Origin: an uncultured Pseudomonadota bacterium
GTDB taxonomy: Bacteria; Oederibacteriota; Muellerivitia; Muellerivitales; Muellerivitaceae
Assembly: GCA_963836235.1 (NCBI GenBank)
Contig: CAWIIP010000002.1
Location: 928,001 to 992,000, forward strand
Direction of reading: 5' to 3'
Length of the DNA: 64,000 nucleotides
The position numbers and the translations under genes are program-made. The notes beneath the pieces are model-generated. The model made no database searches and was not told where the DNA came from. It saw nothing but the letters and a program-made list of their open reading frames with translations. This document shows, in pieces, positions 16,461 through 59,900 of this stretch. Position 1 is the first letter of the stretch. The number at the start of each line of letters is the position of its first letter.

Positions 16461-19400
16461 TCAGTGAATGACCACAACCTTGCCCGTTTTCCGAAGAGAC
16501 TGGGGCCCGTTGCCGGCTTGGATGACGTAAATATACAAGCCGCTGGCCACCGAGTTATCCGATTGGTTCTCAAGATTCCAGATGATCTTGTTCAAACCGC
16601 TTTGACCTAAGATATCGGCTTGATAAACCAGCTCACCCGTGACGGTGAACAATTCCAATTGAACTTGTGAAGCTGAAGGTAAAGTAACCTCAAAATCAAT
16701 GGGAGTTCCATTCTTTGAGATGTTTGGAACAGCTTTGGCAAATGAAGCGCTCGATTGACATGCTGGAGTCGAGGTTGAACCTGCACTCAATCCGCTTCCT
16801 TCCTGTACCGCGGCCGCTACCAGCCGGGGTGTCGGGCTGGATGTTGGCGTACGAGTTGGCGTAGAGGTCCTAGTATTGGTGGGCGTTTTCGTGTCCGTAG
16901 CGGTGTGGGTGTTGGTAGGTGTCTTCGTCGCCGTCTTAGTATCGGTCGGCGTAGGAGTATTCGTCGGCGTACGAGTGGGCGTAGAGGTCCTAGTATTGGT
17001 CGGTGTCTTCGTGTCCGTGGCGGTATGGGTACTGGTAGGTGACTTCGTCGCCGTCTTAGTATCGGTCGGCGTAGGAGTATTCGTCGGCGTACGAGTGGGC
17101 GTAAAGGTACTAGTATTGGTCGGCGTATGGGTAGGCCTATGAGTATGGGTGCTGGTTGGCGTAATAGTAGCCGTCTCGGTAGCGGTGCTACTGGCCGTCC
17201 GGGTCGTGGTAAGCGTCGGCGTGGAGGTTGCGGTAGCCGTAGCCGAGTTTGTGGGTGTATTGGTCGCCGTATTGATAGCCGTGCTGGTGGCGCTATTCGT
17301 GACCGTGAAAGTTGGCGTCACGGTGGGCGAATTGGTGGCCGAAGAAGTAGGCGTAAGGGTTGCCGTTTTCGTCGCCGTGAAGGTAATGGTTGGCGTCGGG
17401 GTCAAGGTCGGCGAACCGATCGCGGAGCCGCCGGATGTGCAAGGGGCGAATTGATCCACTTGGTTCGCTCCCTGTTCCGCCACATAGAGGGTTCCGTTGT
17501 TGGTAGCCAAACCTTCCGGATTCATGAAGCCGCTTCCAGCGCCGGAGGTCACCCCTTCCAGGGTTCCCTGTTCGTTGTAGACCGCGACCAAGCTGACGCC
17601 ATCGGACACGTAAACCAAGCCCGTCACGTTATCCACCGTGATAAAGCCTGGGCCCTGGAGGCCTGAGGAAGTGGTGTTCCATTGGCTCAGAAGATTTCCC
17701 TGGTAATCAAACACGGAGACCGTTTCGGCGTCGTAATCCGTCACGTAAACGTTGCCGTTGCCATCCACCGACACGCCCGTGGGAGCTTGGAAGGCCGTGG
17801 GTGTCCCCGCGATTCCAGTGCTGCCCCATTGGTTCAAATAACCGTTGGTTGGGTTGAAAGACTCTATCCGGCCGTTGCCGAAGTCCGCCACATAGAACGT
17901 GGTTCCGGCGTTGTTTGCCCCGATACCCCAAGGTTCGTTGAACTGTCCGTTTCCGAAACCCGTGCCGCCAAATTGCGCGACTGGTGTGCCGTAAAGGGTG
18001 AACTCGTCGATTTGGTTGTCATAGAAGTCCACGACGAAGATGTCGTTCCCGGCGATGGCCAGGCCGTTGGGTTCGCCAAAGGCATAGCTGCCGGTCCCGC
18101 TCCAGGGCGTCAAAGCCGCCCCGGTGGCCGAGTAAACATCGATCTGGTTGTTGGTGTTGTCGGCAATATAGACATTACCGCTGGCGTCCAAAGCCAAGCC
18201 ATAGGGGCTTCCAGCCGCCAAGGTCTGGTTCTGGCCGCAAGCCAATGGGGCGTTGTTAGGCGTGGCGGTAGGCGTGGGGATGCTCGAGCAAGGAGCAATC
18301 AACCGGATATTATCCAGGTAAAAGTTCCCTTTCCCATTGGTGGAATTATTGTTGTAGATGAACCTGATTCCAGTCGTGGAACTTCCCACACCCGTTATAA
18401 GGAATGTCACGCTCTGCTGTCCTGCGACAATACCCACCGTATTTGAAATAGTCGAATAATTTTGGTCCACTATTTCCAGTTGGGAATAGGTCGACCCAGC
18501 CACCAAACTCGGATCCACATAGAGATCCATAACCAACTGGCCCACATTTGTCCAATTCGTGATCGGAATCCCGGACAGGATCATCGCCTGGTCGTTCCAA
18601 CCCGCGGCGGTGTTGATGTTTACATCCAGGGAAGTCAATCCTTGGGTCACGTGCGATTTGGACAGGCTGAAGGTCGCGTTCGATCCGCTCCAAGTCCCAC
18701 CCTGGGTCAAGCTCTCGCAACCGTTGAGCAGCTCGGGGCATGTCGCCACGAACACGGGGATGTTGATAGTCACGTCATTCATCCAAATAGTAACCGGCGC
18801 GGTGGCGTTCAGCACCTGTATACCCAATTGTTCAACATCGGACGGGGTCCCCGGGCTCATGGTGAAGCTGACTTGAGTCCAAGAAGAGGACAAACTGTTC
18901 TGGTAAGATCCGCCGTCCCATGAGTAACCCGACCCGCTTTGGTCGAATACCTGGAGGTTTCCTGAACCCGAGGCCTTGTACCAGAAGCTAATGGTACTTC
19001 CGGCGGGGATGGATACGGCCGATGGGAATTGCAAGCCGATGTCCTCACCGCCAGCACCCACCACGGGAAGAATCACTTCCAATGATCCCGTTCCACCAGT
19101 CAAAGGATAGGGATTGGCCGGGTCCACCTGAACAATCGCCCCGGCAGGTCCATTAAACGCTGTCCAACCCTGGGTACAGCCACCGAAGGTATAAGTGGGT
19201 TGTAAGGAAGCCACGCAAGCCGTCGGTGTGGCCGTAGGCGGCATGGTCGGCGAGCCGATCGGCGAGCCCCCGGAGGTGCAAGGCGCGAATTGATCCACTT
19301 GATTCGCTCCCTGTTCCCCCACGTACCAGGTTCCGTTGTTGGCAGCCAAACCTTCCGGATCCTGGAAGCCGCTTCCGGCGCCGGAGGTTACCCCTTCAAA

Positions 19401-22400
19401 TGTTCCCTGCGTGTTATAGACCGCGACCAGGCTGTTGCCATCGGACACGTAAACCAGGCCCGTGGTGTTATCCACCGCGATGAAGCCGGGTCCTTGAAGG
19501 ACTCCTTGGGCGCTCCATTGCCGAAGGAGATTACCCTGATAGTCAAACACCGACACGGTTTGGGCGTCGTAATCCGTCACGTAAACATTGCCGCTGGCGT
19601 CCACCGCGATACCCGTGGGCGCTTGGAAGGGAGTGGTTCCCGTAATTCCACTGGCTCCCCATTGGCTTAAATAGGTACCCGCGGGGCTGAAAGCCTCCAC
19701 CCGGCCGTTGCCGAAGTCCGCCACATAAACCGTGGTTCCGGCGCTGTTGGCCCCGATTCCCCAAGGTTCGCTGAATTGTCCGTTACCGCTGCCCTGGGTT
19801 CCCCATTGGGCGACGGGCGTACCGTTGAGGGTAAACTCGTCGATCTCGTCGTCATAATAATCCACCACGAAAAGGTTGTTCACGGCGACGGCTAGGCCGT
19901 TGGGTTGCCCAAAGGAATAGCTGCCGTTCCCGTACCATTGGCCCATGGAAGCTCCCGTGGCCGAGTAAATATCGATCTGGTTGTTCGTGTTGTCGGCGAT
20001 ATAGACATTGCCGCTGGCGTCTAAGGCCAAGCCATAGGGGCTTCCCGCCGCCAAAGTTTGGGTCTGGTTGCAGGCCAAGGGCGCGAAGGTAGGTGTAATA
20101 GTGGCCGTCGGCAAGATGGGGTTGGAGATGAGCCAGCCCTGCACATCGGCAGTGATCGTGCTCCAGCCATTGCCTGAACCGCCCGTGCCAATTTGGAACC
20201 CGATCTGAACCACTTGGGTCGGGTCAAAACCGCCTGACAAAGTACTGGGGACTGTCATCGTGAAGGTGACGCATCCCGAATCATTCCCCGTGGCCGATCC
20301 AAAGTAGGTGCCGGTTTGCTGATAAACACCGGCGTAGCCTTGAGCTGAACCGTCTTGTAAATAGATCTGGCCGTAATACTGGGGAGCGTTGGAATCGAAC
20401 CCGTTGCTGATATCGGCGACCATCGTGATCACCTTGCCCGCGAAGTTCGTGGGAACGCCGAAACCTTTTTCCACGTTGTAAGTTTGGTTGATCCCGGTGA
20501 AGGGAGGCTGTATTTCCAAGGCGCCGGTGGAGCCGCCATAGCAACTATCGGCGGGCGCGGGATTAAAGGCGACCGACCCGCTGATGATTCCTCCCGAATA
20601 TTGGTTGACGCTCCAGCTGCTGACATCCGCGGTGGAATTAAAGGTATAAGAGGAAAGTGGAACCGGGGTGCCGGTGGGGGTGGGGGTGTTTAAAACTTTC
20701 GGCGTGGCGTTGGAGAAAAGCCAGCCCTGAACATCGGCCGTGATCGTGCTCCAACCTGTGCCACCACCGCCCGTGCCGATTTGGAACCCGATCTGAACCA
20801 CTTGGGTCGGGTCAAAGGAACCGCTGATGCCGCTGGGGACCGTAAATGTGAAGGTGACGCATCCCGAATTGTTCCCGGAGGCGGACCCAAAGCTGGGTTG
20901 GGTGGAATAGGCGCCTGCGTAACCCTGGGCGGCACCGTCCTGTACGTAGATTTGGCCCCAATACTGGGCCGCGTTGGAGTTAAAGTTGTTGCTGATGTCG
21001 GCGATCATCGTGATGGACTTGCCCGCGAAATTCGTGGGACCCGCCAAACCCTTTTCCACATTGTAATTTTGGTTGGCCCCGGTGAAGGGAGGCATCACTT
21101 CCAATGCTCCGGTAGAACCGCCGTAACAACTGTCGGTTGGCGAAGCGTTATAGGCGACCGACCCGCTGATGAGCCCTCCCGAATATTGGTTGATGCTCCA
21201 ACTGCTGGCATCCGCGCTGGAATTGAAGGTATATCCGCCGTTCAGAGACAGGCGGGTGCTGGTGGGCGTGGGTGTGGAGGTGGGGCCCCCGCTGTTTTCG
21301 GTCAGGCACATCTGGCCGACCCAGAAGGTCATCGGTGAGGAATTGGCCGCGTCGGTCTGGAACTTGATGCCGTTGCAATTCGCCAAAGCCTGTGCCTCGG
21401 TGGGAATGGCATCAGGAGATCCCGTGGGCCAACTGCTGTACTGCCGGACAAAAGAAGAGTAAGGAATCGTCACCAATTGCCATGTGTTAGGCGTCGACAC
21501 TTGGATGGCGTAACTATAATCGGCGTAATCCCCGGTGGTAGCGTTGTCAATGATGGGATTGGCGAATTCAACTAAAACCGTGGTTTGGACGCTTGCCATA
21601 AAATAGAACTGAAGGTTGTTCAAGCCGCTGAAGTTCTGGACGCTGCCGAAAGTGGCCTCTTCCCCAAAGCCGCCCGACGAAGGGTTCGTTCCCGACAATT
21701 GCAAAGCGTAGGCGGGTCCATTCGCGACCGGGCTCACCACTCCCGTTGAAGCGGTGTTTGCGCCGCCGCCATAGTTGTAAGAATAGAAGGACGTTCCTAA
21801 ACTATCCGTCACAACTCCGTTCCCGAAATTAGAGGAATACACGCAGGAACCCGCCGGAATCGGTGTGGGAGTGATGAAGACGGTAGGCGTAAAGGTGGGC
21901 ACGGAGCCAGGGATAAGCCAATTCTTGACTGCGACTCCCCAAGCCGACGGGGCGAAATTCCAATTGGCCAAAAGGTCCGGCGGCGTATCGGTGTTCATGG
22001 ACCAAGCGGTGGCTCCTACCACACCCGTGGTGGTGACGGCCCAGCCCGAGGGACCGATCATGTTGTTGTCAAAGGTGCCGTTGTCGCTGTCGTTGCTGGC
22101 ATCTGGACCCATTTCACCAATGAAAACAGGAACGGTGGTAAGGACCGAAGACGGAACGCTGGCGTTCCAGCTGGAGGCTGCGATGCCGTCGTTGCTGCCG
22201 TAAAGATGCGCTGAATAAACCACGCCGTTGCCGGGGTTGGCCACGGGATAGTTCACGACGCCAGTCAAGTCCGAGCACCAGGCCAAGCCGCCCATCAAGC
22301 AAACATTGTTTGCGCCCGTTCCACGGACCGCGTTTAAGAGGGCCTGCATGCCTGGTGTCGTAAAGGAACCATTATTCGAGCCGCCATTGAACCAAGTATT

Positions 22401-24233
22401 CCAAGCATTGGTGTCATCCGTGCCGCTGGGGCTGGTGCTGTAAGGCTCGTTGTAAAGGTCGAAGAGAACTGCCGGATTGTTGGCGTAGGTGGAAGCCAAT
22501 GAGCTCCAGAAGGTGATGGCGTTGGCGTCCGCCATGAACTGTTGCTTGGTGTTGAGGTCGTTACCCCATCCGGTTCCGCAAGGCGCGGTGGCGGTCGAGG
22601 AAGTCCCGGACCAATGCAGGTCCAGGATCACGTAGACCCCGTGGTTGAAGGCGTAATCAACGATTTGATGGACCTTGCTCTGGTAAGCCGCGGAACCCGC
22701 GCCCGAACAGCCGAACCATTCATCCTGGTTCAGGGGGAAGCGCATGATAGTGGCGCCCCAGGCCGTGACCGCTTCCTGCTCGGTTTTCAAGATCGAGCCG
22801 CCAATCCCGCTCGGCGGGCCCTCGCCGATGTAAGCCGAACCGTCATACCATTCTAAGCTGTCGATGTCGACGCCCTTTAGGACGGCGGGAGAGCCGTTCG
22901 CCAAAAGGGAATTTCCGGAGACCGAAAGGGATGGCGGACCGCTGGTGGGAGTGCGCGTAATGGTGGGCGTGATGGTCGCCGACTGCCTTTTTGATAAATA
23001 GGCGGATTGGTAAACCCAACCCTGCACATCAACCGTGACCGTATTCCACGCCGTTCCGGAACCGCCCGTGCCGATTTGGAATCCGATTTGAACCACTTGG
23101 GTCGGGTCAAAGGATCCGCTCAAAGAACTCGGAACCGTAAAGGTAAAAGTGACGCATCCGGAATCATTGCCCGACGCGGAGCCAAAGCTGGTACCCGTAT
23201 TTTGATATACCGAAGCGTAACCTTGGGCAGGTCCATTTTGTAAATAAATCTGACCATAATATTGGCCCGCGTTCGAGTTGAATCCGTTGCTGATATCAGC
23301 CACCATCGTGATGGCCATACCGCTAAAGTTGGTCGCCCCAGCCAAGGCATATTCGACATTATAAATTTGGTTGGCGGCCGTAAAGGGAGGTTGGATTTCC
23401 AGGGCTCCGGCAGAGCCGCTGTAACAGCTATCGGCGGGAGAAGAATTAAAACCGACCGATCCGGTGATGAGTCCACCCGAATATTGGTTAATGCTCCATC
23501 CGCTGATATCCGCGCTCGAATTGAAGGTATAACCGGTGGAACCGGGTGAAAGTGGACCAATAGTCGCTGTCGGGGTAACGGTAGGAGTGGGCGTCAAGGT
23601 AGGCGTCGGTGTGTTGGTCGGATAGACCCAGCCTTGAACATCCACCGTGATGGTATTCCACGCCGTACCGCCGCTGCCGGTGCCGATTTGGAATCCTATT
23701 TGAACCACTTGGGTCGGGTCGAAGGATCCACTCAAAGAACTTGGGACCGTAAAGGTAAAAGTAACGCAGCCGGAATCATTTCCCGTGGCGCTCCCGAAGC
23801 TGGTTCCGGTGGACTGATAGACCGAAGCGTAACCTTGAGCGCTCCCATCCTGCAAATATATCTGGCCGTAATACTGGCCCGCGTTCGTGGCAAATCCGTT
23901 GCTAATATCAGCCACCATCGTGATTGACTCGCCCGCAAAATTAGTGGGACTCGCCAACCCATAATCCACGTTATAAATTTGGTTGGCCGCGGTAAAGGGC
24001 GGCTGCACCTCCAAGGCACCCGTGGAACCGCCAAAACAACCATCGGCGGGGGCGGGATTATAGGTTACCGATCCGGTAATCAAGCCACCCGAATAGATGT
24101 TAATCCCCCAATTACTGATATCCGCGCTTGAATTAAAAGTATAGCCGGAAAGACTTTGCGCCCATGTCCATCCCGGGCCTAATGCGATTAGGAGAAAGAG
24201 TAAGCTAGAATATTTTTTGAGATAAGAAGTCAT
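16461..24233 (-). CDS. Giant secreted modular GH5 glycoside hydrolase (4 repeated CBM-like modules, CBM11/CIA30-like domain, 2 NHL propellers, Thr/Pro linker, C-terminal sorting domain)
   Basis: Signal peptide after ATG 24233; GH5 motifs [25 protein letters not shown]; NHL repeats; CTD ending [10 protein letters not shown]...GKVVVIH. Confidence 0.88.
16850..17125 (-). repeat. 120-bp-period tandem repeat encoding the Thr/Pro linker
   Basis: 16861-16980 and 16981-17100 are near-identical. Confidence 0.9.
17410..20080 (-). repeat. Two similar NHL beta-propeller modules (~17410-18250 and ~19260-20080)
   Basis: Both begin [35 protein letters not shown] and end [23 protein letters not shown], with high DNA similarity. 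Confidence 0.9.
20127..24146 (-). repeat. Four ~175-aa repeated modules (~23622-24146, 23010-23534, 20715-21236, 20127-20651)
   Basis: Each spans YTFNS.AD...SGCVTFT...[16 protein letters not shown]...DVQGW. Confidence 0.92.
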
Positions 24234-24552
24234 TAGTTTTCCTTTGGGCAAAAGGTTGCAAAAATAATTCTTGGCGACAATAAAAAAAAATAAAAAAATT
24301 GTCAAAGAGATTTTATTGAATTAATTTTGGCGGGTTTAGAATGGTACTTTTTTTGACAGAATAATCAATAAAACTTTTTGTAAATCTTTCACCCGTTTTA
24401 AAAAACGTTTTTTGGTTTTCCGTTAAAGATATTTGTAGTTTTTTTGTCATTAACAAAAAACATTTTAGGGCGATTCCTTATTTTTACGAAGAACCAACGC
24501 CTTTCTTCGTTAAATCGAAGAGTCTAAAATTTAGACTTGTAAAAACAAAAAA

Positions 24553-33199: not shown

Positions 33200-36100
33200 T
33201 TAAAAAAGAGTAGCCTGGTTGGAATCAGGAAGGGCTTTGAGGCAGCCGTGTTCTTTCAGGATTTCAATGACATTCTTGTTCACGCCGCAACGATCCACGA
33301 GGTCCTCAATGGTGACAAACTCACCCTTGGCACGTTCTTCCCGGATAAGATCGGCAGCCGTTTCACCCAAGCCCGCCAAACTGATGAGGGGCGGGCGTAA
33401 TTTTTTCTCACCGTCCTGTTCTTGGATGAGGAATTGGCGATTGTCGGATTGATAGAGATCCACCGGCAGGAATCTGAACCCTCGCGCATAGACTTCCTCG
33501 ACCACGTCCAGAACCGAAGCCTCGTCCTGTTCCTTATTCGTCGGCTTTTCTAGGGACCGGATCAGCTTGATGCGGTCCTTCACCCGGCCCAATCCGCCGC
33601 AGGCCACCGTGGCATCGAAGCCAAAAGCTTTGTTCGTGAAATAATCCGCGTAAAAAGCCAGTGGGTGGTGCACTTTAAAATAGGCGATGCGGAAACTCAT
33701 AATGCAATAGGCCACCGCGTGGGCTTTGGGAAAAATATATTTTATTTTTTTGCAGCTATCGATGTACCACGTCGGCGTTTTGGCCGCGATCATGGCTTGT
33801 TCGTACTCCGGCTTCAGTCCCTTGCCCTTGCGCACGTCCTCCATGATCTTGAAGGCCAGGGCTTCATCCATCCCCCGGGCCAACAAATCATTCAGCATGT
33901 CGTCACGGGTGGAGATGACGGTGGAAAGATTGGCGGTTCCCTTCTTGATCAAATCCTGCGCATTACCAAGCCAAACATCAGTGCCGTGGGCCAGACCCGA
34001 TAGCCTTCCCAAATGCTCGAATCTAGTGGGTTTGGTGTCCCGCAACATGTCCATCGCAAAATTGGTGCCGAATTCAGGAACACCCAATGTCCCCAGATCT
34101 TTATCTGTTTTTTCTTTTAACTTAAGTGCTTTCGTGGAGGAGAACAGACTCATCGTTTCCGGGTCATTCAAGGGAATGCCGATGGCCGAAACGCCGGTCA
34201 TTCCTTCCAATCTTTTCAGGCTGGTGGGATTGTCGTGCCCCAGGATGTCGAGTTTCACCAGGCAGTCATGCATGCTGTTGTAGTCGAAATGCGTGGTAAT
34301 GACGTCACCCTCTTTGTTGTCCGCCGGGTACTGAACCGGGCAGACGTCGGTGATTTCCATTTCCTTCGGCAGGATGACGATACCACCCGGATGCTGACCG
34401 GTGGTTTTGGAAACTCCTGAGCATCCCTTGACCAGGCGGTTAAGTTCGGCGTTCCTCGCCGTGCGCCCTGCTTCCTCCACGAATTTTTTCACAAATCCGA
34501 AGGCAATGCGGTCCTGAACCGCGGAAATAGTCCCCGCGCGGAAGCAATGGTCCTTGCCGAATAATTCTTCAACATACTTGTGAGCCACGTGCTGGTACTC
34601 ACCGGAAAAGTTGAGGTCGATATCCGGCATCTTGTCGCCCTTGAAACCCATAAAGACCTCGAAAGCGATGGAAAAACCGTCTCTCACCGCTTCTTTGCCG
34701 CATTTGGGACAGTTCTTTGACGAAAGGTCCACTCCCGCCATGGAAGCTGGATTGGGGGGAAACTCGAACCAGTGAGCTTCTTTACAGCGCCAATGGGGCA
34801 TCAGGGGATTGACCTCCGTGATACCGCAAAGGAAAGCCACGAAAGAACTGCCGACCGAACCCCTACTTCCCACGATATATCCGTCGGAAAGGGATTTTTG
34901 GACCAGCTTTTTGGCGATCACGTAAAGGGTGGAAAACTTATTGTTAATGATGGCGTTCAGTTCTTTTTGAAGCCGTTTTTCAATAAAATCCGGCAAGGGG
35001 GCTCCATAAAGCTCCAAAGCCTTTTGGGTGGCTGTTTCCCGAAGCTCCTCGTCAGCCCCTTCCCACATGGGCGACAGGGTTTGGGTGGGCAGGGGTTCCA
35101 CGTCCTCGACCATTTCCGCCACCATCCGAGGGCCTTTCACCACCAGTTCATGGGCGATTTCATCCCCAAAATAGGAAAAATCGCTTTTAAGCTCATCAGT
35201 AGTTTTGAAATAAAGGGGAGCTTGGCGCTCCAAACCGTAGCCCATGCCTGATTGGAGGATTCGGCGGTAAACCTCGTCTTGGGGTTCAATGAAGTGGGAA
35301 TCCCCCGTGGCCACTACAGGTTTTCCCAGCTTTTTGCCCGTATCGTAGATCACCCGGGTGAGTTTTTGGAGTTCTTCCATGTCCTTGACGATTCCGTCCC
35401 CGATCATGAACTCGTTGTTGGCGCAGGGCTGGATTTCGATGTAATCATAGAAGGCGGCCACTTCCTCCAGCGGACGACCTTTATGAAGGAGATTCTGCCA
35501 GACTTCCCCCTGTTCACAGGCCGAGCCCACAACGATTCCCTCGCGGAATTCTTCCAAAAGAGCCCGGGGGATGAGGGGCCTTTTATAGAAATATTTCATA
35601 TGGCTTTCGGAAACCATTTTGTAGAGGTTCTTCAGACCTTTCTTGTTTTTCACCAGAAGAATGATGTGATAAATATTCATTCCCTTTTCGCGCTTGAACT
35701 CGTCAACTAAGTAGCCTTCCATACCCAGGATCAGCTTGATACCGTGTTTTTTGGCGGCGACCCGGGCTTCCGGATAGGCCTGGACCACTCCGTGATCCGT
35801 GATGGCGATCGCCGAATGGCCCCACTTGGCGGCCTTTTCGATGAGCCGGTCGATCTTAGAAAGGCCGTCCATGCGGCTCATTTGGGTGTGGCAGTGCAGT
35901 TCCACCCGTTTCTCCGCTGCGGTATCCTGCCGGCTTTCGGGCGGGGGCATTTTCATGATGTCCTTGGCGGCTAGCGTCAGTTCGTCGTGGGAATATTTAT
36001 CCGGTCTCAGGTCGCCTCGAACCCTTACCCAATCCCTTTCCTTCAAGCCACCCTTGAACTTGCCGTCGTTCTCGTGGAAGAAACGCACGTCGAGGGAATT

Positions 36101-37841: not shown

Positions 37842-37890
37842 AGCTATCCCTCTGTGCGGCGTAAAACGCCGCTGTGGTGAAATGTTTTAA

Positions 37891-38757: not shown

Positions 38758-38758
38758 C

Positions 38759-45880: not shown

Positions 45881-48800
45881 CTATCGAATGACAAGCAGTT
45901 TCATCACTTGTTGGGTACGGGAATCGCCCGTTTTGATGTCGAGTACTACGTAATAAAGCCCGTTGGCAGCGTCCAGGCTATTTAATCCCCAATAGAAAGT
46001 GTAAAGATGCCCGCCGGGAGAGGTCTCCAGGTTATCGTCCTCAAAAATCTTGCGGAAGGCCAGGGTGAAAACCTTCACTTTCACCTCGTCCGTGGTTTCC
46101 GGAACTTGATAGGAAAGTTTCAAAAGCCCTCCGCCCGTGAAGGGATTGGGGAAAACCCCGGTAATGGCCGGAGTAGAAGTGGGGGTCGACGAAGAAGTCG
46201 GAGTGTCGGTGACGGTCGGGCTGCTTGTAGGCGTGTTTGAGGGAGTCGCGGTCATCATCGCGATGGCAATCGTGGCTCCAGCCACGGGCATATTCGCGAA
46301 GAGGACAGCCTGGCCATTCGTTCCAGCTCCGCCTGTTATGCTGAAGGAATAGCTTCCTATCGGCGCGCTATTCGAGAAGTTTGCCACTACTTGATAAGTC
46401 ACCGCCCCGTTACTGGGGGGAATGGTATCCGTGAAATTGAAGGTGGCGGCCGATCCGCTGAAACTGGCGGTGGAAATAACCGTTCCATTGCTTACCAGCG
46501 ATACGGAAGTGATTCCCGTCGGGGAAGTGCCCGACTCGGTCAGGGTCAAACTGCTTAAAGTGACGCTGTTGCCGCCCGGGTTAGTCAGTTGGATTTGCTG
46601 TACCGGGACGCCAACAGCCCCCTGGCCCTGGGTGGAGCCGTTCGGTGGACTGGATCCTTGTGAAGCTTGGACCGTCACAGGCGTTGGAGTAAAGGTAACC
46701 GTGACCGTCGCGGTCGGTGAATTTGTAGGTGTATTCGTGGGGGTAACGGTCGCCAGGGGCGTGGGGGTATAGGTGCAGGTGTTTCCAAAGCCATCCATGC
46801 AGACGGTATTGGTGACAGTGAGAGTAGGAGTGGCACTGGGTGTCGGGCTTGAAGTGGCGGTTGGTGAATCCGTCGGAGTTCCGGTTAAGGTTGGCGTCGG
46901 AGAATTAGTTTGAGAATTGGTAGGGGTTCCGGAGGAAGTGGCAGTAGATGAATTTGTCGGGGTGCCGGTAAGGGTAGCAGTCGGGCTATTCGTGGGTGAA
47001 GAGGTGGGCGTCCCCGTGAGGGTGGCACTCGGAGTATTGGTGGGAGTCTTGGTAGCGGTCGCAGAGGGCGTTCCAGTCGGAGTGCTGGTGGGGATACCCG
47101 AATTGGTGAATTGGATAACGTTGATGGAAGAAGGGCTGAAGGTTACCGGGAAGGAAGTGGAAACTCCCGTCAACAAAGCCGTCGTGGGCGCGGTATCCGG
47201 ATTGGCGTTATAGGGAGTCGTGGTAGTCTGCCAGACGTAATTAGTGGTGTTGAAGGTCCAGGAATTGGCGGTGGTGTTGGGGACAAAGGGGCCGATATTG
47301 AGGGTCGTAGCGTAGGAATTCGTGGAATCTTCATTGACCACCATCAAGGAAAGCACACCGTCCGGGCGATAGTCGGCATAGGAAACCAATGTTGCCGCGC
47401 TACTGGTGGTGTTGACTAATTCGTGGGTGCTGGAATCCCCTTGGATAGCCCAGTCCGTCGCCATCATCTGCATAGCCCAATAGGTGGCGTGTTGCTGGTA
47501 GGGGGAAGAATTGTCCAGGTAACCCAGGTCCCCATCGGTAGCAACGGTATGATCGCTGCCGCCGTTAATCACGTCCCAAAGGTTGGAAAAACCCGTACTG
47601 CCGAAACCTTTAATGAAAGCGCCCAGCCAATCCGCTAGCCAAAGGCCGTTGGCCTCCTGAACAGTGGCATTGGAAGCGACGGCGTTCGCGTTGGAGTTGT
47701 ACTCGCTCATGAGCACCGGAATACTGGAAAGGCTCAAGCCCACCGCGCTAAGCCAGTTACCAAGGGTCACGGGAAAATTGGCCAATTGGCCCGGCGTGGA
47801 AAAACCAGCTGGAAAGGCGGTCAACCCCGGATACCAGTGGAAATCCATCCCACCCAGGTCGGCAATGGCGTTTCCCCCGGGATTGTTGTAAAGCCTCAAA
47901 AGGAAATCCTGAATGTAGCTATTGCTGTCGTAGGCGTTGGACGCGGCGTTGGGGGAACCACTGACCGGTCCTACGATGGTGATAGGCACCCCGTCACTGG
48001 AAGCCTCGGCCTGCATGGCGTTGTAATATTCGATGAACCTTCGGCCATAGTCGTTAGCGTTCATGGGCCCGCCCGTTTCCCAGTTGCCGTTAGTCTCGTT
48101 CCCGATCTGCCAGTAATGGATGCCATAGCTCTTCACCGCGTTGGCGTAATGGACCCAGGAAGCCGCTTCCGAGGGCGTGCCCGTGCCCACGTTGACGGTG
48201 ATCAGCGGAATGCCCTTGGGGGAAAAGGAACTCACTTCGGTCATATAGGTATTGAAGTCAAAAGAAGGCGTGGAGTAGCTGGGGGCAAGAGGTTGTTCGG
48301 GATTGGTAGAGGCGCAGGTTTGGCTGGAAGCCGGATCCATGCTGGAGGCCGTCACGTTGTATTGGTTGGCTTGAGTATTGGGAGGACTGGCATTCTTAAC
48401 GTACTGGGTCGCACCGTTGAAAAGGGAAAGTTCGGCGATGGCGTAGGGGGCTCCCGCCCCGCCCGAACTGGCGGTCATGAGAATACGAATATAACGGGTG
48501 GAAACGGAAGTAAAACTGACGACCTGGGTACCACCGGTGCCCGCCACCGTTCCGGCGGAGGTATTGGTCCAGATGGTTTCGGTGGCGCTGGTATAGGGAG
48601 CGGCATTGGCATTGTCATATTGGACTTCAAAGGAGGTTGCGTAGGGATTTCCCCAGACAATGGAAACGGAACTGACCGCCGTGCCGGTGGCTCCCAGGTC
48701 TATGTAAACCCATTGGTGATCTGGCAAGTCGGTGTCGATATTAGACATCCAGGTGGTGGCGGTATTTCCGTCGTCAATATTGGAAGGATAGGCGTAGCTG

Positions 48801-49183
48801 GTGGAAGTGGTGCCCCGGTAAACAGCGCAGCCCTGCCAGCCAATGGCATAGCTGGTACCGCTTGGCACCCAATAATGGTTGGCGTCGAAGCTGCCGGAAC
48901 CGTTCCAGTGGTAGTCGTCGGAAGAGGAACCTCCCGGATAGCGCAGGAAGTAGTTCCCCGCCGCTTGGACCTTTGCCGCGACCGCGGAGTTGGTGGCGGA
49001 GGAAACCCAATAAGCCATATTGTTTCCGAAAATATGGATGGGCACGAAGGAAGTGATGGTAGAAGCGCCGTTCACGGTGATGGAAGCGGGAGTTTGCGCG
49101 CCGGTGGGGAGAGTCATTCCCAGCAAAAGACAACCCAGGCCGGCAACCAAGAAAATGTTTTTGATTTGGAATTTCGAATTCAT
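45881..49183 (-). CDS. Secreted clan GH-A glycoside hydrolase paralogue with discoidin insert, Thr/Pro linker, Ig-like module and C-terminal sorting domain
   Basis: Same catalytic motifs as 43329..45788 (YWQIGNE, SEYN); long T/P/S linker; CTD ending ANGLYYVVL...MKLLVIR. Confidence 0.8.
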   Translation of the reverse strand: MNSKFQIKNIFLVAGLGCLLLGMTLPTGAQTPASITVNGASTITSFVPIHIFGNNMAYWVSSATNSAVAAKVQAAGNYFLRYPGGSSSDDYHWNGSGSFDANHYWVPSGTSYAIGWQGCAVYRGTTSTSYAYPSNIDDGNTATTWMSNIDTDLPDHQWVYIDLGATGTAVSSVSIVWGNPYATSFEVQYDNANAAPYTSATETIWTNTSAGTVAGTGGTQVVSFTSVSTRYIRILMTASSGGAGAPYAIAELSLFNGATQYVKNASPPNTQANQYNVTASSMDPASSQTCASTNPEQPLAPSYSTPSFDFNTYMTEVSSFSPKGIPLITVNVGTGTPSEAASWVHYANAVKSYGIHYWQIGNETNGNWETGGPMNANDYGRRFIEYYNAMQAEASSDGVPITIVGPVSGSPNAASNAYDSNSYIQDFLLRLYNNPGGNAIADLGGMDFHWYPGLTAFPAGFSTPGQLANFPVTLGNWLSAVGLSLSSIPVLMSEYNSNANAVASNATVQEANGLWLADWLGAFIKGFGSTGFSNLWDVINGGSDHTVATDGDLGYLDNSSPYQQHATYWAMQMMATDWAIQGDSSTHELVNTTSSAATLVSYADYRPDGVLSLMVVNEDSTNSYATTLNIGPFVPNTTANSWTFNTTNYVWQTTTTPYNANPDTAPTTALLTGVSTSFPVTFSPSSINVIQFTNSGIPTSTPTGTPSATATKTPTNTPSATLTGTPTSSPTNSPTATLTGTPTNSSTATSSGTPTNSQTNSPTPTLTGTPTDSPTATSSPTPSATPTLTVTNTVCMDGFGNTCTYTPTPLATVTPTNTPTNSPTATVTVTFTPTPVTVQASQGSSPPNGSTQGQGAVGVPVQQIQLTNPGGNSVTLSSLTLTESGTSPTGITSVSLVSNGTVISTASFSGSAATFNFTDTIPPSNGAVTYQVVANFSNSAPIGSYSFSITGGAGTNGQAVLFANMPVAGATIAIAMMTATPSNTPTSSPTVTDTPTSSSTPTSTPAITGVFPNPFTGGGLLKLSYQVPETTDEVKVKVFTLAFRKIFEDDNLETSPGGHLYTFYWGLNSLDAANGLYYVVLDIKTGDSRTQQVMKLLVIR

Positions 49184-49264
49184 CAAAACCTTGTTTTTAC
49201 AAAAAATAAAAGCCGAAAATCAAATTTCCTTTTCGGCTCGGCTGCACAGTTTAACTAAAAAATA

Positions 49265-49489: not shown

Positions 49490-50725
49490 TTATCGTCGGA
49501 TCAGGACTTTCATCACCTTTTGATTCTGTTGGCCACCGCTTTTCGAAACAAACACAAAATAATAAAGCCCGTTGGCTAAATTCAGACTGGCCACATTTAC
49601 GACCTTGGTTTGAGGACCTTGACTGGCACCCAAGCTGTCATCCTCATAAATCTTTCGGAAGGACAGCGTGAATATTTTTAATTGAACCGCATCTTCCGCT
49701 TGGCTGTTTTGGTAATTAAAAGTAATGTCGTCCCCCGGGTTTGAGGCGTTCGGCCAAGGATTAGGATAGGCTACCAAAAGACTGGAAGGCGTAGCGGTCG
49801 GCGTGGGAGTGAAGGTAGGGGTGCACGTATTTCCGGGGTAACCACAAGGTGTCTCAGTTGGGGTCGGGGTGGATGTGGAAGTCGGAGTGAAGGTTGGAGT
49901 CCAACATGAATTGCTAACATAGGCACTGAATCCGCTGCTGGAGAAGGGAACTCCGCCGGTTCTGATTTCGATACCAGCCTCAATCGCCGAGAGATACCAG
50001 GATGGCTGGATATATCCGCGGTTCACGCAATCGTTGATGAAAGCCAGAAGATTCACATTATTGAAAGAGGTAATATTGGAATCCGCCATATAGGCAATGT
50101 AGTTCCAACCGACATTTCCCTCGTTAAGTCTCCATGTTGTGGTTGTATTACCAATAGTTAAACCGTCGGTTACATATGCTCCACCAGGCCCAGTCCCCGG
50201 CGTGAAATTTAGCCAGATCATCAATTCGGCGCTTTGAGTATTGAGTCCTGTGCCAGTGGATGTGGTAAACCAAATGTCATAGGCCGCGTCCCAAAGATCG
50301 CTACCCGTTTCGTTGGTAACGGCAATATTCCAACTGCTGGTTACACATTGAAGACTACTGACCAACATTGGAAGATTAGTACCGGAACTGCAAGACCCCG
50401 CGGGCTGGCATCCATAAACAATCGAAGGATAAGTCGCCACGTTATCCCCGCATGTAAAGTTCCCGCCTGTCACCGTGAAATCGCCGGTAGCATTGTTAAT
50501 TGTCATGCATTGCTGCGTGATGGGGCAAGGTCCTGAGTTCCAATAATTGGTCTGTACATAGTAGGAAGGGCTGCCAGTCGTGTTAACCGTAAGAAACTTG
50601 GCACATGTATTGGTGGTTTGGGCTTGGACCGAAAGGTTTAAACTTAAGAAATTCAAAGCGGCTAGCGCTAACGGCAAACCGGTTGTTGCTAAAATGGATT
50701 TAAGTTTTCTCAAATTTTCCTTCAA
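49490..50725 (-). CDS. Secreted GH12 endoglucanase/xyloglucanase with C-terminal sorting domain
   Basis: VQTNYWN, TYPSIVYG, DAAYDIW, AELMIWL, IEAGIEI GH12 motifs; linker; CTD. Confidence 0.9.
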   Translation of the reverse strand: MKENLRKLKSILATTGLPLALAALNFLSLNLSVQAQTTNTCAKFLTVNTTGSPSYYVQTNYWNSGPCPITQQCMTINNATGDFTVTGGNFTCGDNVATYPSIVYGCQPAGSCSSGTNLPMLVSSLQCVTSSWNIAVTNETGSDLWDAAYDIWFTTSTGTGLNTQSAELMIWLNFTPGTGPGGAYVTDGLTIGNTTTTWRLNEGNVGWNYIAYMADSNITSFNNVNLLAFINDCVNRGYIQPSWYLSAIEAGIEIRTGGVPFSSSGFSAYVSNSCWTPTFTPTSTSTPTPTETPCGYPGNTCTPTFTPTPTATPSSLLVAYPNPWPNASNPGDDITFNYQNSQAEDAVQLKIFTLSFRKIYEDDSLGASQGPQTKVVNVASLNLANGLYYFVFVSKSGGQQNQKVMKVLIRR

Positions 50726-56911: not shown

Positions 56912-59900
56912 TTAACGCAGGAGGAGGAGTTTGACTACGGAGTGGTAACCGTTATGGTTTGAGATCACCACATAGTAAAGGCCACTAGCCAGAGGTGCCC
57001 CTGACTTGTCGTTCAGGGCCAAAGGAATATGCCAGGTCTTCGCTGTTGTACTCCCGCTCACCGAAGCCGTCACGCCCGGTGACGAGGTCGACACCGTGTT
57101 GTCCTGCACATCCCGGAAGGCCACCGTGAATATCTGCACACTCAATGTATCCGACGCTTGACTCAATGTCGCCGACACCGTAACGGGTCCTCCCGTGGAG
57201 GGGTTCGGGTAAACCACTGGTATCGAACTCGGTTGAAGGGTGGAAGTCGGCGTCAACGAAGCCGTGGAATTGGGCGTCGAGGACGGTGTAGAGGTCGCCG
57301 AGCTAATCGTGACGACAGCCCCGGGGACCGGCAATCCGCCGAAGCCAACAGCTTGGCCATTGTTCCCTGCTCCGCCTGTCACACTGAATGTGTAGGTACC
57401 CGTCGGCGCGCTAGTCGAGAAGGTCGCCACCACTTCATAAGTCACCGCCCCATTACTGGCCGGAATGACATTATTGGAAGTTAAACTACTCAAATTAAAG
57501 GTCGCCGTCGTTCCAGTGAAACTGGCCGTGGAAATAACCGTTCCATTGTCCACCAGCGATACGGAAGTGATTCCCGTAGGGGATGCACCTGACTCGGTAA
57601 GGGTCAAACTGCTCAAAGTGACGGCATTTGCTCCGGGATTGGTCAATTGGACTTGTTGTACGGCCACGTTGGAAGCTCCCGCCGGTTGAGTTGAATCGAC
57701 AGGCGGGCTGGACCCTTGCGAAGCCTGCACCGTTACTTGGGTGGGAGTCGGGGTCGGGGTGATCGTAGGCGTATTGGTCAGCGTGACCGTTGCCGTAAAG
57801 GTTGGGCTGTTGGTTAAAGTTTCGGTGGCCGTATTGGCCAGAGTATTGGTAGGTGTGGAAGTCGTTGTTTTAGTTTCCGTATTCGAAGCGGTAAGCGTCG
57901 GAGTGGTGGTGGCGCTATTCGCCAAAGTATTAGTGGGCGTGAAAGTCGTTGTTTTAGTTTCCGTATTCGAAGTCGTAAGCGTTGGGGTGTTGGTAGCGCT
58001 ATTCGCCAAGGTATTAGTGGCTGTCGCCGTGGCCGTACTGGTGGCGCTATTCGCTAAAGTATTCGTGGGCGTGAAAGTCGTTGTTTTAGTTTCCGTATTC
58101 GAAGTCGTAAGCGTTGGGGTGTTGGTAGCGCTATTCGCCAAGGTATTAGTGGCTGTTGCCGTGGCGGTATTCGTGGCACTATTCGCCAAAGTATTCGTAG
58201 GCGTCGACGTGGCCGTATTTATGGCCGTATTTGTCGTCGTACTGGTAGTCGTCGAGGTCGGGGTTTTGGTCGCCGTCATTGTCGTCGTATTCGTGGCTGT
58301 ATTGGTTCCCGTGTTCGTGGCCGTGAATGTAGCCGTACTCGTTCCTGTCTTGGTGGGAGTAGAGGAAGGTGTCGACGTCACGATTGTTCCCGTGGGACTC
58401 AGGGTCGGTGTATCGCTGATGGTGGGGGTGGCGGTGTCAGTCGTCGTGGAAGTGGCGGTTTTAGTCGCCGTGTTCGTCGCCGTTTGTGTAATGGTGGAAG
58501 TAGTCGTACCGGTAGTTGTGGAAGTCACCGTTCGGGTGGCAGTGGAAGTAGATGTATTCGTGGCTGTATTCGTCAGGGTGTTGGTGGAAGTGGCCGTCGG
58601 GCTGTTGGTCGGAGTTTGAGTAGCCGTGCGAGTGGCGGTATTAGTCGTTGTGCCGGTTGCCGTGTTGGTCGTCGTGTTCGTCGCCGTGCTGGCTAAAGTA
58701 CTAGTAGAAGTCGCGGTCACGGTTGAAGTAACCGTCTTCGTAGGGCTATTCGTCATCGTATAAGTTGGACTATTCGTAGCCGTAAAGGTCGGAGTTGCGG
58801 TAGATGTATTACCCACGGTATTCGTCGAGCTCGCGGTCGCTGTAAAGGTCGGGGTTCGCGTTGGACTGTTTGTAGCCGTAGCCATAGTTGTCCCAGTCGA
58901 CGTAAAAGTGGTGGTACTTGTCACAGTGTTCGTAAGGGTTGCTGTCGAACTGTTGGTAGGCGAGGCCGTGGTTGTGCGGGTGGCGGTACTGGTGGTCGTA
59001 GCCGTCGGACTGCTGGTTGGGGTATTGGTCGATGTGTTACCAACGGTATTGGTTGGAGTGAGAGTCGCTGTTCGGGTTGACGTAAAAGAAGACGTACTCG
59101 TCAAAGTGTTCGTGGGGGTGCCAGTGGAGGTGCGGGTAGGCGTAAAAGTAGGAGAGGGAGTCGGAGTGAAAGTATTGGTGGCGGCGACGACCGAAGGTGT
59201 GGCAGTGGGTGGGGCCGTTCCCGCTAGACAAACATTATCAATCCAAAACCCGAAAGTGGAGGGGGCCCCTTCGGTTTCCCATTGAAGGGAACTCACCCAA
59301 GTAATGGCTTGGGCCAAACTATAGGTCACCCCGCCAATGACCGGAGGACAGCTACCGCCACCCCAATCCTGGCACTCACAAGCGGTAACGGGAACGGAAA
59401 CATATTGCCAGGTATTGGCGGTAGTGACGTTGAAATCGAACCCATACTGGTTGTCAGTACCTCCACCGCCTACTAACGAACCCATCCAGCTTAAGGGCGC
59501 GACCGCAACGTGAGGGTTATTGAGGTTGAATCTCAAGGTAACCCCAGCAACGGTGGATTGGACATAAAAAGAGATGTTCGTCACCCAGCTTAAGTTGGAA
59601 TATCCAGTATTCATTTGGGTCGCCAAGGCGAAACCGGCGTAAGTGGTTACGCCCCCGTCCGTGACACAGCCATTGCAGGCCCAACCGCCGGTCACATGGG
59701 CCGAATAACTGCTGGGGGCAACAGCGGCGATACTATTGTCCATAATGACCGAACAAGGCACTCCGCCGGGACAACTGACGGTCGACATAGCTGGGGTAAC
59801 GGGTGTGTTCGAGGCGGTGGTCCAGTCATAGGTAAACCAGTCACCGTTTGTATTGTTGTAAAAGGTATCTTCAGTGAAGTTAGACACTTGCCAACAGGAA

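Follow-up and report, generated by a model that had tools for sequence, protein, structure and literature searches.

C-terminal tails on secreted enzymes of an uncultured FCPU426 bacterium suggest a reduced and diverged type IX secretion system

The window, i.e., the whole stretch of 64,000 nucleotides of DNA that was analysed, carries five minus-strand open reading frames (ORFs) with stops exactly at 16461, 43329, 45881, 49490 and 56912 in the ORF list, and the domain scan identifies them as a set of CAZymes, expected to be secreted and to degrade plant polymers, comprising two GH5, one GH12 and two GH-A/CBM32 proteins (Table 1). All five N-termini resemble signal peptides by eye, with basic residues and a hydrophobic run followed by AQ[ST] or AAP, as in the 819-aa protein (...GFSSAQT) and the 411-aa GH12 protein (...SVQAQT); for the 2614-aa GH5, translation probably begins at Met 25, and the signal-like stretch then ends in WTWAQS. 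Further, every one of the five tails is preceded by a T/P/S-rich linker. A sequence-only reading of this DNA had described these genes as secreted enzymes with a Sec-like signal, a T/P linker and a common tail, and both coordinates and motifs agree with that description.

Regarding their architecture, the 2614-aa GH5 protein also contains repeated modules of ~200 aa and ends in a class B tail, which follows a long T/P/S linker. In the 819-aa and 1101-aa proteins, an F5/8-type-C (CBM32-like) module sits within a domain weakly similar to GH51 arabinofuranosidases, and the latter displays an additional domain of ~130 aa without assignment, flanked by two T/P/S linkers, which is also found in the 1396-aa GH5. 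This last enzyme has a near-identical paralogue at G000 C2:1095777-1099922 with an identical tail (L037). Close relatives of the GH12 protein carry the name 'hypothetical protein', PF01670 being the sole precomputed domain.

Table 1. Enzymes and C-terminal tails in the window (HMM and TIGR04183 scores in bits; curated TIGR04183 cut-off, 23).
Feature	Position	Strand	Description	Five-tail HMM	TIGR04183
2614-aa enzyme	16461..24305	-	GH5 PF00150, 9e-31; two NHL beta-propeller regions, NHL 4.9e-40		
Class B tail of 2614-aa GH5	16464..16763	-	VPNISKN...KVVVIH-stop; HMM match reaches the stop; FlgD_ig 23.5 bits (cut-off 27)	114.6	25.5 six-frame, above cut-off; 18.1 in whole-protein scan
819-aa glycosidase-like enzyme	43329..45788	-	CBM32/F5-8-type-C module, T/P linker, class A tail		
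Class A tail of 819-aa enzyme	43332..43631	-	FPNPLKD...VKIFTLACRKV...ANGLYYVAL...KLLIQR-stop	151.8	20, under cut-off
1101-aa enzyme	45881..49186	-	Paralogue of 819-aa enzyme; class A tail at end		
Class A tail of 1101-aa enzyme	45884..46183	-	FPNPFTG...VKVFTLAFRKI...ANGLYYVVL...KLLVIR-stop	147.7	
411-aa GH12 endoglucanase-like enzyme	49490..50725	-	PF01670, 2e-18; T/P linker; class A tail		
Class A tail of GH12	49493..49792	-	YPNPWPN...LKIFTLSFRKI...ANGLYYFVF...KVLIRR-stop	142.9	18.9, under cut-off
1396-aa GH5 (PF00150) enzyme	56912..61102	-	Very long T/S/N/P-rich linker region; class A tail		
Class A tail of 1396-aa GH5	56915..57259	-	YPNPSTG...ASGLYYVVI...KLLLLR-stop; 14-residue insertion	111.5	18, under cut-off

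The five tails are 100-115 aa long and share 26-51% pairwise identity, and their translations follow a common layout: [VFY]PN[IP] near the start, V.[VL].[ILV]FT[LV] in the middle, then A[NS]GLY[YI], and K[LV][LV]..[RH] right before the stop. Four of them bear FTLACRK, FTLAFRK, FTLSFRK or FTVAFRD, and the 2614-aa GH5 bears FTVTGELV...IIWNLENQ; the FT[LV][AS][FC]R[KD] signature and the FlgD-Ig-like variant of the giant GH5 that had been pointed out earlier are thus seen in the translations. With TIGR04183, the four class A tails of the window reach 16-20 bits or are not matched in whole-protein scans, and Pfam yields nothing on them, or FlgD_ig beneath its cut-off. No sixth tail-bearing ORF was found in the window with either the five-tail HMM or the iterated model.

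Across the 3.97-Mb genome, the HMM built from the five tails, a check that had been suggested for them, matched 65 ORFs at E<=1e-3, once per protein, and all 65 matches ended 0-13 residues before the stop; among the genome ORFs, no internal tail copy was found by this first-pass model. The iterated model also matches internally: 17 ORFs contain tandem copies and 2 others a single internal stretch, and therefore related Ig-like domains are not restricted to the C-terminus. TIGR04183 itself has 92 matches in the genome, 41 of them above the curated cut-off. Consistent with the two classes previously proposed, the 113 terminal tails split into 39 of class A, 38 of class B and 36 others, and their end is conserved through to the stop as K-[LV]-[LV]-[VIL]-x-[RHK], with R, H or K as the last residue in 89. 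Class A, seen on four enzymes of the window and on at least 39 proteins genome-wide, is a lineage-specific type characterized by FTxAFRK, a basic nature and a location after T/P/S linkers, and it is not recognised by public models or annotation; class B (xxGExV), to which the giant GH5 tail belongs, is closer to the canonical form of the C-terminal sorting domain (CTD). As for the cargo, the cellulases of the proposed 'cellulolytic arsenal' are indeed present, but the range is wider: besides GH5 and GH12, it includes GH16, GH30, S8 peptidases, and binding or propeller proteins, with beta-helix, NHL, PA14+CBM9 and FG-GAP also among the cargo. Such a range is typical of secreted proteins, and the catalytic and binding architectures that bear the tails are unrelated.

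A profile built from 25 of the tails matched the solved T9SS CTDs of PorU (6za2, E 1.5e-8) and PorZ (5m11, 4.4e-6), as well as the SprA-bound cargo CTDs 8glj_D (1.3e-5) and 8glk_D (4.7e-5), and 24 of the 25 tails matched TIGR04183 at E<=0.01, which upholds the T9SS-CTD-like character initially assigned to them. Furthermore, the AF2 model of the class A tail at 43332..43631 is a beta-sandwich (pLDDT 87) whose top query-normalised TM-score corresponds to the PorU CTD (0.71), with many generic Ig-like and CBM-like folds returned by Foldseek at similar E-values. Judging from these comparisons, the five tails are homologous to the T9SS type A CTD and are probably diverged sorting signals. Alternatively, they could be ordinary Ig-like or FlgD-like structural or carbohydrate-binding modules that come last by chance, on enzymes that are periplasmic or exported otherwise, as FlgD_ig being the nearest Pfam family, the generic folds and the tandem internal copies might suggest. 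This we consider quite unlikely, given that the profile prefers T9SS CTDs over FlgD (3.5e-4), that first-pass matches lie singly at the extreme C-terminus with conservation running to the stop, that the architectures bearing them are unrelated, and that the tails co-occur with SprA and PorV-family proteins in every sampled lineage.

Within the window, the 1222-aa protein at 33200-36868 displays a PolC-type domain order, and relatives at 76-93% identity are named, e.g., candidate division FCPU426, which NCBI places in 'Bacteria candidate phyla', outside the FCB group. According to these names and this placement, the host belongs to candidate phylum FCPU426 and not to Bacteroidota, in line with the doubts already raised on the latter. 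Among the phylum genomes sampled, the tail profile was present in 81/81 (from 7 up to at least 60 copies per genome), SprA in 77/81, with conserved synteny across the phylum, and a PorV-like barrel in 41/41; all three, with CTD proteins numbering in the tens per genome, are phylum-wide. T9SS-tailed cellulases are known in Cytophaga. They are also described in Fibrobacter (PMC6851124), and the CAZyme genes of the window break up an array of otherwise housekeeping genes; both points would fit a recent horizontal transfer of these genes and their tails from Bacteroidota or Fibrobacterota, the tails being relics without a working pathway. We regard such a transfer as highly improbable, since the tails and a syntenic SprA extend throughout the phylum, the class A signature is lineage-specific and missed by public models, and the GC content of the CAZyme stretches (0.51-0.56) lies inside the window range (0.49-0.56).

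One SprA/Sov homologue (2028 aa) bearing N-terminal fn3 domains is located elsewhere in the genome and scores 226.6 bits with TIGR04189 (cut-off 200). Its single-sequence search against the PDB found no relative, and a profile of 13 homologues from the phylum matches F. johnsoniae SprA (6h3i_A) at 9.6e-51. Nine of the ten PorV-like ORFs tested passed the PorV/PorQ family cut-off, with only 59-73 bits against the PorV equivalog (cut-off 250); PorV-family paralogues are numerous, and some are fused to OmpA_C-like or TPR domains. For 13 of the 22 best PorV-like ORFs, the gene immediately upstream encodes a CTD protein, and 0 of the 39 class A tails have an adjoining PorV-like barrel gene. Complex prediction with a standalone PorV-like barrel and the class A tail of the 819-aa enzyme gave an ipSAE of 0.78 (best control, 0.00), a mark reached by 58/80 solved complexes and 2/110 mismatched pairs; the runs agree in at least 89% of contacts with a partner pLDDT of at least 78, and the predicted interface maps to the conserved PNP, FTLACRKV, LANGLYY and KLL..R motifs. 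Because solved PorV-CTD complexes exist, this pass may stem from likeness to them and not constitute independent support.

Other T9SS parts gave a different picture. The genome, which is 99.4% complete, lacks the GldK/PorK FGE-sulfatase fold, with controls above cut-off in three genomes; none of 41 phylum genomes reached the GldK cut-off, and weak FGE-fold matches are patchy (18/41, at most 88.6 bits vs 350). GldL, GldM, GldN, PorP and the PorU body/C25 peptidase were not detected in the genome, a weak negative for GldL/M/N, PorP and C25, as no control genome matched either, and the full-length PorU model aligned to its CTD part alone. One weak GldM match corresponded to a chemoreceptor. Either the host lacks the known energy source and sortase, or these have diverged beyond detection. 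A complete canonical T9SS could be imagined, with PorK/L/M/N, PorU, PorP and others too diverged for Bacteroidota-trained models and nothing reduced, and it would accord with the searches that lacked a control match, with an SprA too diverged for the single-sequence search and with the low PorV equivalog scores. We nonetheless find it rather unlikely, considering that the GldK/PorK fold is missing despite working controls and across the phylum, that models of the same origin do pick up SprA, PorV-family barrels and CTDs at such distance, and that PorU was matched in its CTD part only.

With the homology of the tail, SprA and PorV, the strict C-terminal position, the diverse cargo and the phylum-wide co-occurrence as observations, we consider it probable that a T9SS variant exports the tailed enzymes in the FCPU426 host, reduced and diverged because neither the PorK/N ring and PorL/M motor of Bacteroidota nor their PorP and PorU sortase were detected. 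Of the 'divergent T9SS-like or novel' pathway put forward by the sequence-only reading, the first part stands, and the wholly novel one does not, with an SprA above cut-off and PorV/PorQ-family barrels present. In the proposed route, Sec would carry the enzymes over the inner membrane, the Ig-like tail, once recognised either in the periplasm or at the outer membrane, would pass through the single SprA/Sov-type translocon, and PorV/PorQ-family barrels may take the shuttle role. Long T/P-rich stalks would then carry the catalytic modules, displayed or retained outside the cell, possibly after CTD removal, and the system might be energised in a way other than the canonical one.

The T9SS type A CTD (TIGR04183/PF18962) has been solved in RgpB, PorU and PorZ of P. 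gingivalis and in F. johnsoniae cargo on SprA-PorV. In Bacteroidota, Sec-exported hydrolases and adhesins carry it at their very C-terminal end as an Ig-like beta-sandwich of about 80-100 aa, which opens with a PNP-type motif, contains G-x-Y and closes with a basic K-x-x-x-[RHK]. The FCPU426 tails share these traits, show profile-level homology and likewise have SprA and PorV-family proteins alongside. In contrast, class A in the FCPU426 host has FTxAFRK in place of the canonical xxGxxV strand, is longer and falls under curated cut-offs; as no PorU sortase was detected, tail removal and A-LPS attachment are uncertain. The canonical Bacteroidota machinery comprises SprA/Sov, PorV, PorU/Z, the PorK/N ring, the PorL/M motor, PorP, PorT, PorW and PorE. 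The FCPU426 host resembles it in an SprA homologue above the NCBIfam cut-off and in PorV/PorQ-family barrels, and differs in its undetected parts (GldK/PorK fold, GldL/M/N, PorP, PorU body), in the N-terminal fn3 of SprA and in many PorV-family paralogues, some with OmpA_C-like/TPR fusions.

Type B CTD cargo of Flavobacterium johnsoniae has cognate PorP/SprF shuttle genes (PMC12618676), a cargo gene being followed by a dedicated outer-membrane barrel gene as for the linked PorV-like ORFs here; unlike in that system, the linked FCPU426 barrels are PorV/PorQ rather than PorP/SprF and go with type-A-like tails, and class A tails are devoid of such a neighbour. Cellulases of Fibrobacter succinogenes carry basic terminal domain or Fpm-1 tails that were reread as T9SS signals (PMC6851124). 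The likeness lies in the basic C-terminal tails, some matching TIGR04183, that numerous cellulases and hemicellulases bear in a cellulose degrader outside Bacteroidota. However, Fibrobacter lies in the FCB superphylum, and the class A motif and T/P stalks of FCPU426 are set apart from its tails as described there. Poribacteria, a candidate phylum outside FCB, have TIGR04183-like domains, and the study that describes them (PMC3909097) found none of the structural Por genes; in contrast, the FCPU426 host has an SprA translocon and PorV-family barrels, both present and conserved, so that a concrete route can be proposed.

Five long open reading frames (ORFs) on the minus strand of the window, recovered by ORF listing and translation, share one layout, in which the N-terminus is basic at first and then hydrophobic, closes with AQ[ST] or AAP, and is followed by a catalytic module, a linker rich in T, P and S, and a C-terminal domain of 100-115 residues, referred to here as the tail. 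Read by eye, the five N-termini are predicted Sec signals; a crude signal-peptide rule was positive in 58 of 64 tail-bearing ORFs, yet also in 500 of 1024 control ORFs (49%), and is too lax. Pfam and PDB searches identified GH5 modules in the 2614-aa and 1396-aa proteins and a GH12 module in the 411-aa protein; the 819-aa and 1101-aa proteins are paralogues, in which the same searches placed a CBM32-like F5/8-type-C module within a domain distantly resembling GH51 arabinofuranosidases. The tails are 26-51% identical to one another (n = 5) and all end in K-[LV]-[LV]-x-x-[RH], then stop; four display FT[LV][AS][FC]R[KD], and that of the 2614-aa protein (the giant GH5) displays FTVTGELV. The tail pattern that the sequence-only reading had described on these proteins was thus borne out exactly as written by the ORF list and the translations. 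The 1101-aa and 1396-aa proteins also have in common a domain of ~130 residues located between T/P/S linkers, just ahead of the final linker and tail (12 residues not shown here, then ...VQQ[IV]QLTNPG...SLTLTESG...ITSVSLV), for which no Pfam match was found. The 1396-aa GH5 has a near-identical paralogue, whose tail does not differ from its own, in a second cluster ~110 kb off; this cluster holds at least 12 tail-bearing genes, all of them class A (defined below).

Coordinates of the features discussed (C1, C2 and C4 are contigs of the window's own genome; L036 and the like are genomic loci)
Feature	Location	Strand	Remark
Whole window	C2:928001-992000		
Tail-bearing enzymes (n = 5), ORF ends	window 16461, 43329, 45881, 49490, 56912	-	
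1101-aa protein	window 45881-49186	-	
1396-aa GH5	window 56912-61102	-	
1396-aa GH5 paralogue	C2:1095777-1099922		
Second tail-bearing cluster	C2:1053591-1105407		
Tandem tail-like domains	C4:5503-9492; C2:260181-265415; C4:598729-604623		examples
PolC, 1222 aa	window 33200-36868	-	
Housekeeping array	window 13263-56783		
DUF1207 pair, then GT4	window 36996-39913	-	between polC and proS
Tyrosine recombinase	window 1190-2467	+	near window start
SprA ORF, 2028 aa	L036:7623-13709		on C1
SprA with poly-fn3 protein	C1:505870-516708 = L036:2870-13709		other loci: L068-L079
PorV-family/OmpA_C-like fusion	C4:87749-89962		
CTD gene, then PorV/PorQ-family barrel	C4:567871-575933; C2:1629205-1637168; C1:190337-193203; C4:365403-367604		examples
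Chemotaxis operon	C4:767341-778968		L067
Weak GldM_1st match	C4:774076-774279		E 0.056

[quoted passage not shown] As a profile, A1 matched the solved CTDs of PorU (6za2, E 1.5e-8) and PorZ (5m11, E 4.4e-6), followed by the cargo CTDs present in Flavobacterium johnsoniae SprA complexes (8glj_D, 1.3e-5; 8glk_D, 4.7e-5), with FlgD ranking after all of these (E 3.5e-4). When the 25 tails were scanned one by one, 24 matched the TIGR04183 model at E ≤ 0.01. In whole-protein scans, two window proteins obtained 18-19 bits, against a curated cut-off of 23, and the other three gave no match; the tails of the four smaller enzymes reached 16-20 bits or did not match, and that of the giant GH5 scored 25.5 bits in six-frame translation, over the cut-off, versus 18.1 bits in the whole-protein scan. 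Throughout the genome, TIGR04183 matched 92 times at E ≤ 1, and 41 of these matches exceeded the curated cut-off. Membership in the FlgD Ig-like family (PF13860) was considered and rejected: window tails scored 23.5 and 22.7 bits, below the cut-off of 27, and some other tails exceeded it, but all of these are on secreted enzymes and none on FlgD. The tail of the 819-aa protein was modeled by AlphaFold2 as a beta-sandwich of six long strands (pLDDT 87), for which the top query-normalised TM-score in Foldseek (0.71) corresponded to the PorU CTD, with many generic Ig-like folds at comparable E-values; the predicted fold is consistent with a CTD and not diagnostic of one. Taken together, these results assign the tails to the T9SS type A CTD superfamily as diverged members, and the four of class A in the window would not count as members by the curated TIGR04183 cut-off.

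To establish how the tail is distributed, all stop-to-stop frames of at least 60 codons in the genome (3.97 Mb, 5 contigs, 99.4% complete) were translated and searched at E ≤ 1e-3 with a first-pass HMM built from the five window tails alone. It detected 65 ORFs, and in every one the match was single-copy and ended 0-13 residues before the stop codon. The iterated model yielded 148 domain matches in 115 ORFs, 113 of them terminal; the remaining 35 were either additional copies in tandem, directly preceding a terminal one (17 ORFs), or lone internal stretches (2 ORFs), indicating that related Ig-like modules can sit internally, but that the tail proper is a C-terminal feature. Among these 17 ORFs, and with the iterated model only, are proteins that close with a tandem of three tail-like Ig domains, of which the last is terminal and class B-like and the other two are internal. 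Elsewhere in the genome, the 20 carriers sampled included GH16, GH30 (two), S8 subtilases (three), beta-helix, sortilin/BNR, NHL propeller, PA14 plus CBM9 and FG-GAP proteins; the same tail across many unrelated extracytoplasmic architectures looks like what is expected of a sorting tag.

The 113 terminal tails were divided by simple motif rules, with a few of those left as "other" being visibly class A variants. By these rules, the two-class split proposed earlier holds, with the four smaller window enzymes in class A and the giant GH5 in class B.

Features of the terminal tails according to motif class
Class	Motif	n	Median pI	Median T+P+S fraction of the 65 residues before the tail	PorV-like gene directly downstream
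A	[F/Y]Tx[A/S][F/C]R	39	9.1	0.63	0
B	xxGE/KxV	38	6.1	0.35	3
Other	-	36	7.6	0.42	11

Class A is unrecognised in current annotation, given that the close public relatives of the GH12 protein are labelled "hypothetical protein", with PF01670 as their sole precomputed domain, and that public GH5 proteins matching the linker and tail only (62-75% identity over 31-37% of the query) are labelled just GH5 or cellulase. As a consequence, the secretomes of these inhabitants of soil and peat are probably underpredicted. The best E-values of the A1 profile ranged from 1e-22 to 1e-35 in genomes of the same family versus 1e-11 to 1e-21 in those of other families, which suggests, without proving it, that class A may be confined to one family or order.

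The position of the host was assessed mainly through its 1222-aa DNA polymerase, which displays the PolC-type order (N-terminal domain II, OB, PHP, alpha, fingers and HHH) and in which Pfam found no 3'-5' exonuclease domain at E ≤ 0.001. The relatives that share 76-93% identity with this protein come from metagenome-assembled genomes bearing the names "candidate division FCPU426 bacterium", "uncultured proteobacterium" or "bacterium", and the next matches, which are the nearest named outsiders, are from Clostridia (41-50% identity). Of 41 genomes sampled from the GTDB phylum, 28 have a PolC-type gene (~1250 aa); in six families of the phylum, the window query detected none within the same sample. 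A search with PNPase was uninformative for placing the host, since past close relatives FCPU426, Hyphomicrobiales and Zixibacteria were all at 56-59% identity. NCBI files FCPU426 under "Bacteria candidate phyla" and not in the FCB group; thus, going by the names of the relatives and by NCBI taxonomy, the host is placed outside Bacteroidota and FCB. It encodes LptF/LptG and a heptosyltransferase-like GT9, and is probably an LPS diderm. The housekeeping genes of the window are ordered dxr, rseP, (CAZymes), ispG, proS, polC, a short ORF, nusA, infB, a DHH protein, truB, ribF ... pnp, presumably much as in Bacillus subtilis, and this array is interrupted by the CAZyme genes with tails. Two adjacent DUF1207 genes followed by a GT4 glycosyltransferase gene, and a gene for a tyrosine recombinase of the phage integrase family, are also found in the window.

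A single SprA ORF of 2028 residues was identified in the genome, scoring 226.6 bits against a cut-off of 200 with TIGR04189, which NCBI describes as "T9SS outer membrane translocon Sov/SprA". This ORF had no Pfam match, nor any in a single-sequence search against the PDB, where a 13-sequence profile was needed: the profile of 13 homologues from the phylum matched F. johnsoniae 6h3i_A (E 9.6e-51), with positions 538-1328 corresponding to chain residues 419-1404, and its N-terminus matched fn3 domains. An ESM Atlas search with SprA gave, as a lead only, a best score of 0.87, under the 0.9 line, with SprA_N on 12-20% of the members in two clusters that carry no taxon labels. In a sample of 81 genomes from 21 families of the phylum, SprA was detected in 77, including 55 of 57 of high quality; the four genomes with no match still carry 30-49 tails, so that assembly gaps are the likely cause. 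The A1 profile in turn found tails in all 81 genomes (7 to at least 60 matches each), and a standalone PorV-like barrel of ~320-350 aa is encoded in 41 of 41. With SprA, tails and barrels extending phylum-wide, the system is an old, conserved trait of the lineage rather than a recent import.

Regarding the surroundings of SprA, orthologues of one poly-fn3 protein with a CTD directly follow it in 8 of 13 loci, that of the present genome included, and the LptF/LptG pair lies inside the same 20-kb locus in 9 of 13. A role of the poly-fn3 protein (1545 aa in this genome) as a PorU/PorZ analogue was considered and is not supported: the alignment resolves it into serial fn3-like repeats and a CTD, and Pfam shows fn3 only; judging from its sequence, we treat it as a putative cargo or coat protein. 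In 3 of the 13 loci, within the family, genes for a LytTR response regulator and a histidine kinase are directly upstream of SprA.

The PorV equivalog model NF033710 gave 24 weak matches in about 18 ORFs of the genome (highest score 72.7 bits; cut-off 250), and the broader PorV/PorQ family model NF033709 (cut-off 90) was passed by 9 of 10 scanned ORFs (87.6-171 bits). Several of these barrels are extended at the C-terminus by OmpA_C-like or TPR domains; one fusion carries an OmpA_C-like peptidoglycan-binding domain. An iterated PorV-like HMM drifted to 97 ORFs, TPR proteins included, and gene adjacency was therefore counted on the best 22 (E < 1e-84): a CTD gene lies just upstream and on the same strand in 13 of these 22, with a gap of at most 150 nt in 11. 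Examples of such pairs are listed with the coordinates. By gene order, a subset of putative cargo genes is paired with apparently dedicated PorV-family barrels. This pairing is like that of F. johnsoniae type B cargo with PorP/SprF shuttles, as described in the available text of PMC12618676; the barrels of the present genome belong instead to the PorV family.

Furthermore, a complex between the mature standalone barrel (A4, an alignment of 22 orthologues) and a class A tail (A1) was predicted along with three controls. The ipSAE was 0.78 versus 0.00 for the best control, at least 89% of the contacts agreed between runs, and the partner pLDDT was at least 78; as a benchmark, the ipSAE mark was met by 58 of 80 solved complexes versus 2 of 110 mismatched pairs. 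The confident interface on the tail comprises residues 9-14 (LLFPNP), 39-46 (FTLACRKV), 70-78 (LNLANGLYY) and 95-100 (KLLIQR), which coincide with the conserved motifs. Given that solved PorV-CTD complexes exist, the prediction may amount to recognition of a known complex type; it supports a likeness to PorV-CTD pairs and does not demonstrate binding.

Other components of the T9SS were searched for in the genome. For GldK/PorK, no match to TIGR03525 or PF03781 (FGE-sulfatase fold) was found in it, with control genomes over the cut-off; among 41 genomes of the phylum, none reached the GldK cut-off and 18 had weak FGE-fold matches. Negative results were also obtained for GldL, GldM and GldN (no match at E ≤ 0.01), PorP/SprF, Peptidase_C25, and the body of PorU, where NF033707 matched a CTD segment only; all of these are weak negatives, as no control genome was over the respective cut-off either. 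A divergent GldM was considered and rejected, the only weak GldM_1st match being a methyl-accepting chemotaxis protein (MCP) in a che operon. That operon appears complete (CheA, three CheW, two MCPs, CheR, CheD, CheB and a CheX-like protein), and the organism is probably motile. In summary, the genome lacks the ring protein PorK, and neither the motor nor the sortase was detected.

The presence of SprA and of PorV-family barrels, the putative shuttles, throughout the phylum makes this pathway a T9SS variant and not a categorically new one. The initial interpretation was essentially right in seeing type IX-like sorting tails, divided into two classes, on the hydrolytic arsenal of a host outside Bacteroidota; secretion, surface retention and the energy source are what we infer. 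As a tentative proposal, to which we give somewhat less than an even chance, FCPU426 would possess a minimal, motor-less type IX system consisting of SprA and PorV-type shuttles, some of them single-cargo, without the PorL/M motor, the PorK/N ring or the PorU sortase. Were this so, the translocon and CTD core would be older and more widespread than the Bacteroidota machine, the SprA core could be energised or gated some other way, and this would be the route by which the phylum, with its reported binding and breakdown of cellulose, displays enzymes on glycosylated T/P stalks. SprA and PorV-type barrels coexisting with CTD matches (7 to at least 60 in each genome), without the PorK fold, constitute a natural experiment on which parts form the core, how SprA transport is driven or gated without the known motor, and how old the translocon is.

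By title, the FCPU426 literature among the papers listed consists mostly of community surveys. Cells of FCPU426/Goldbacteria have been caught bound to cellulose, and their cellulases validated (PMC7031533); the available text of that report makes no mention of secretion, signal peptides or the outer membrane, nor of cellulase export or display, and our results provide a concrete hypothesis for this gap. T9SS in FCPU426 is likewise not treated in the available text of PMC13277936 or PMC7031533, and no link between FCPU426/Goldbacteria and T9SS was found in main texts; supplementary tables (e.g., those of PMC4793230, PMC3909097 and PMC7031533) may bear on novelty.

According to the portions available of the respective sources, T9SS was found by TXSScan in Bacteroidetes alone (PMC4793230), is described in recent work as specific to the phylum Bacteroidota or as exclusive to the FCB superphylum (PMC12635249, PMC11205867), and depends on the PorLM motor and PorKN ring in reviews and structural papers. 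Two precedents outside Bacteroidota are contained in the same partial record: the tails of Fibrobacter cellulases, reinterpreted as T9SS signals (PMC6851124), and Poribacteria, with TIGR04183 domains but without Por structural genes (PMC3909097). The canonical host range of the system is, in this literature, Bacteroidota/FCB, whereas the relatives of the present host are named FCPU426, a division that NCBI keeps apart from the FCB group.
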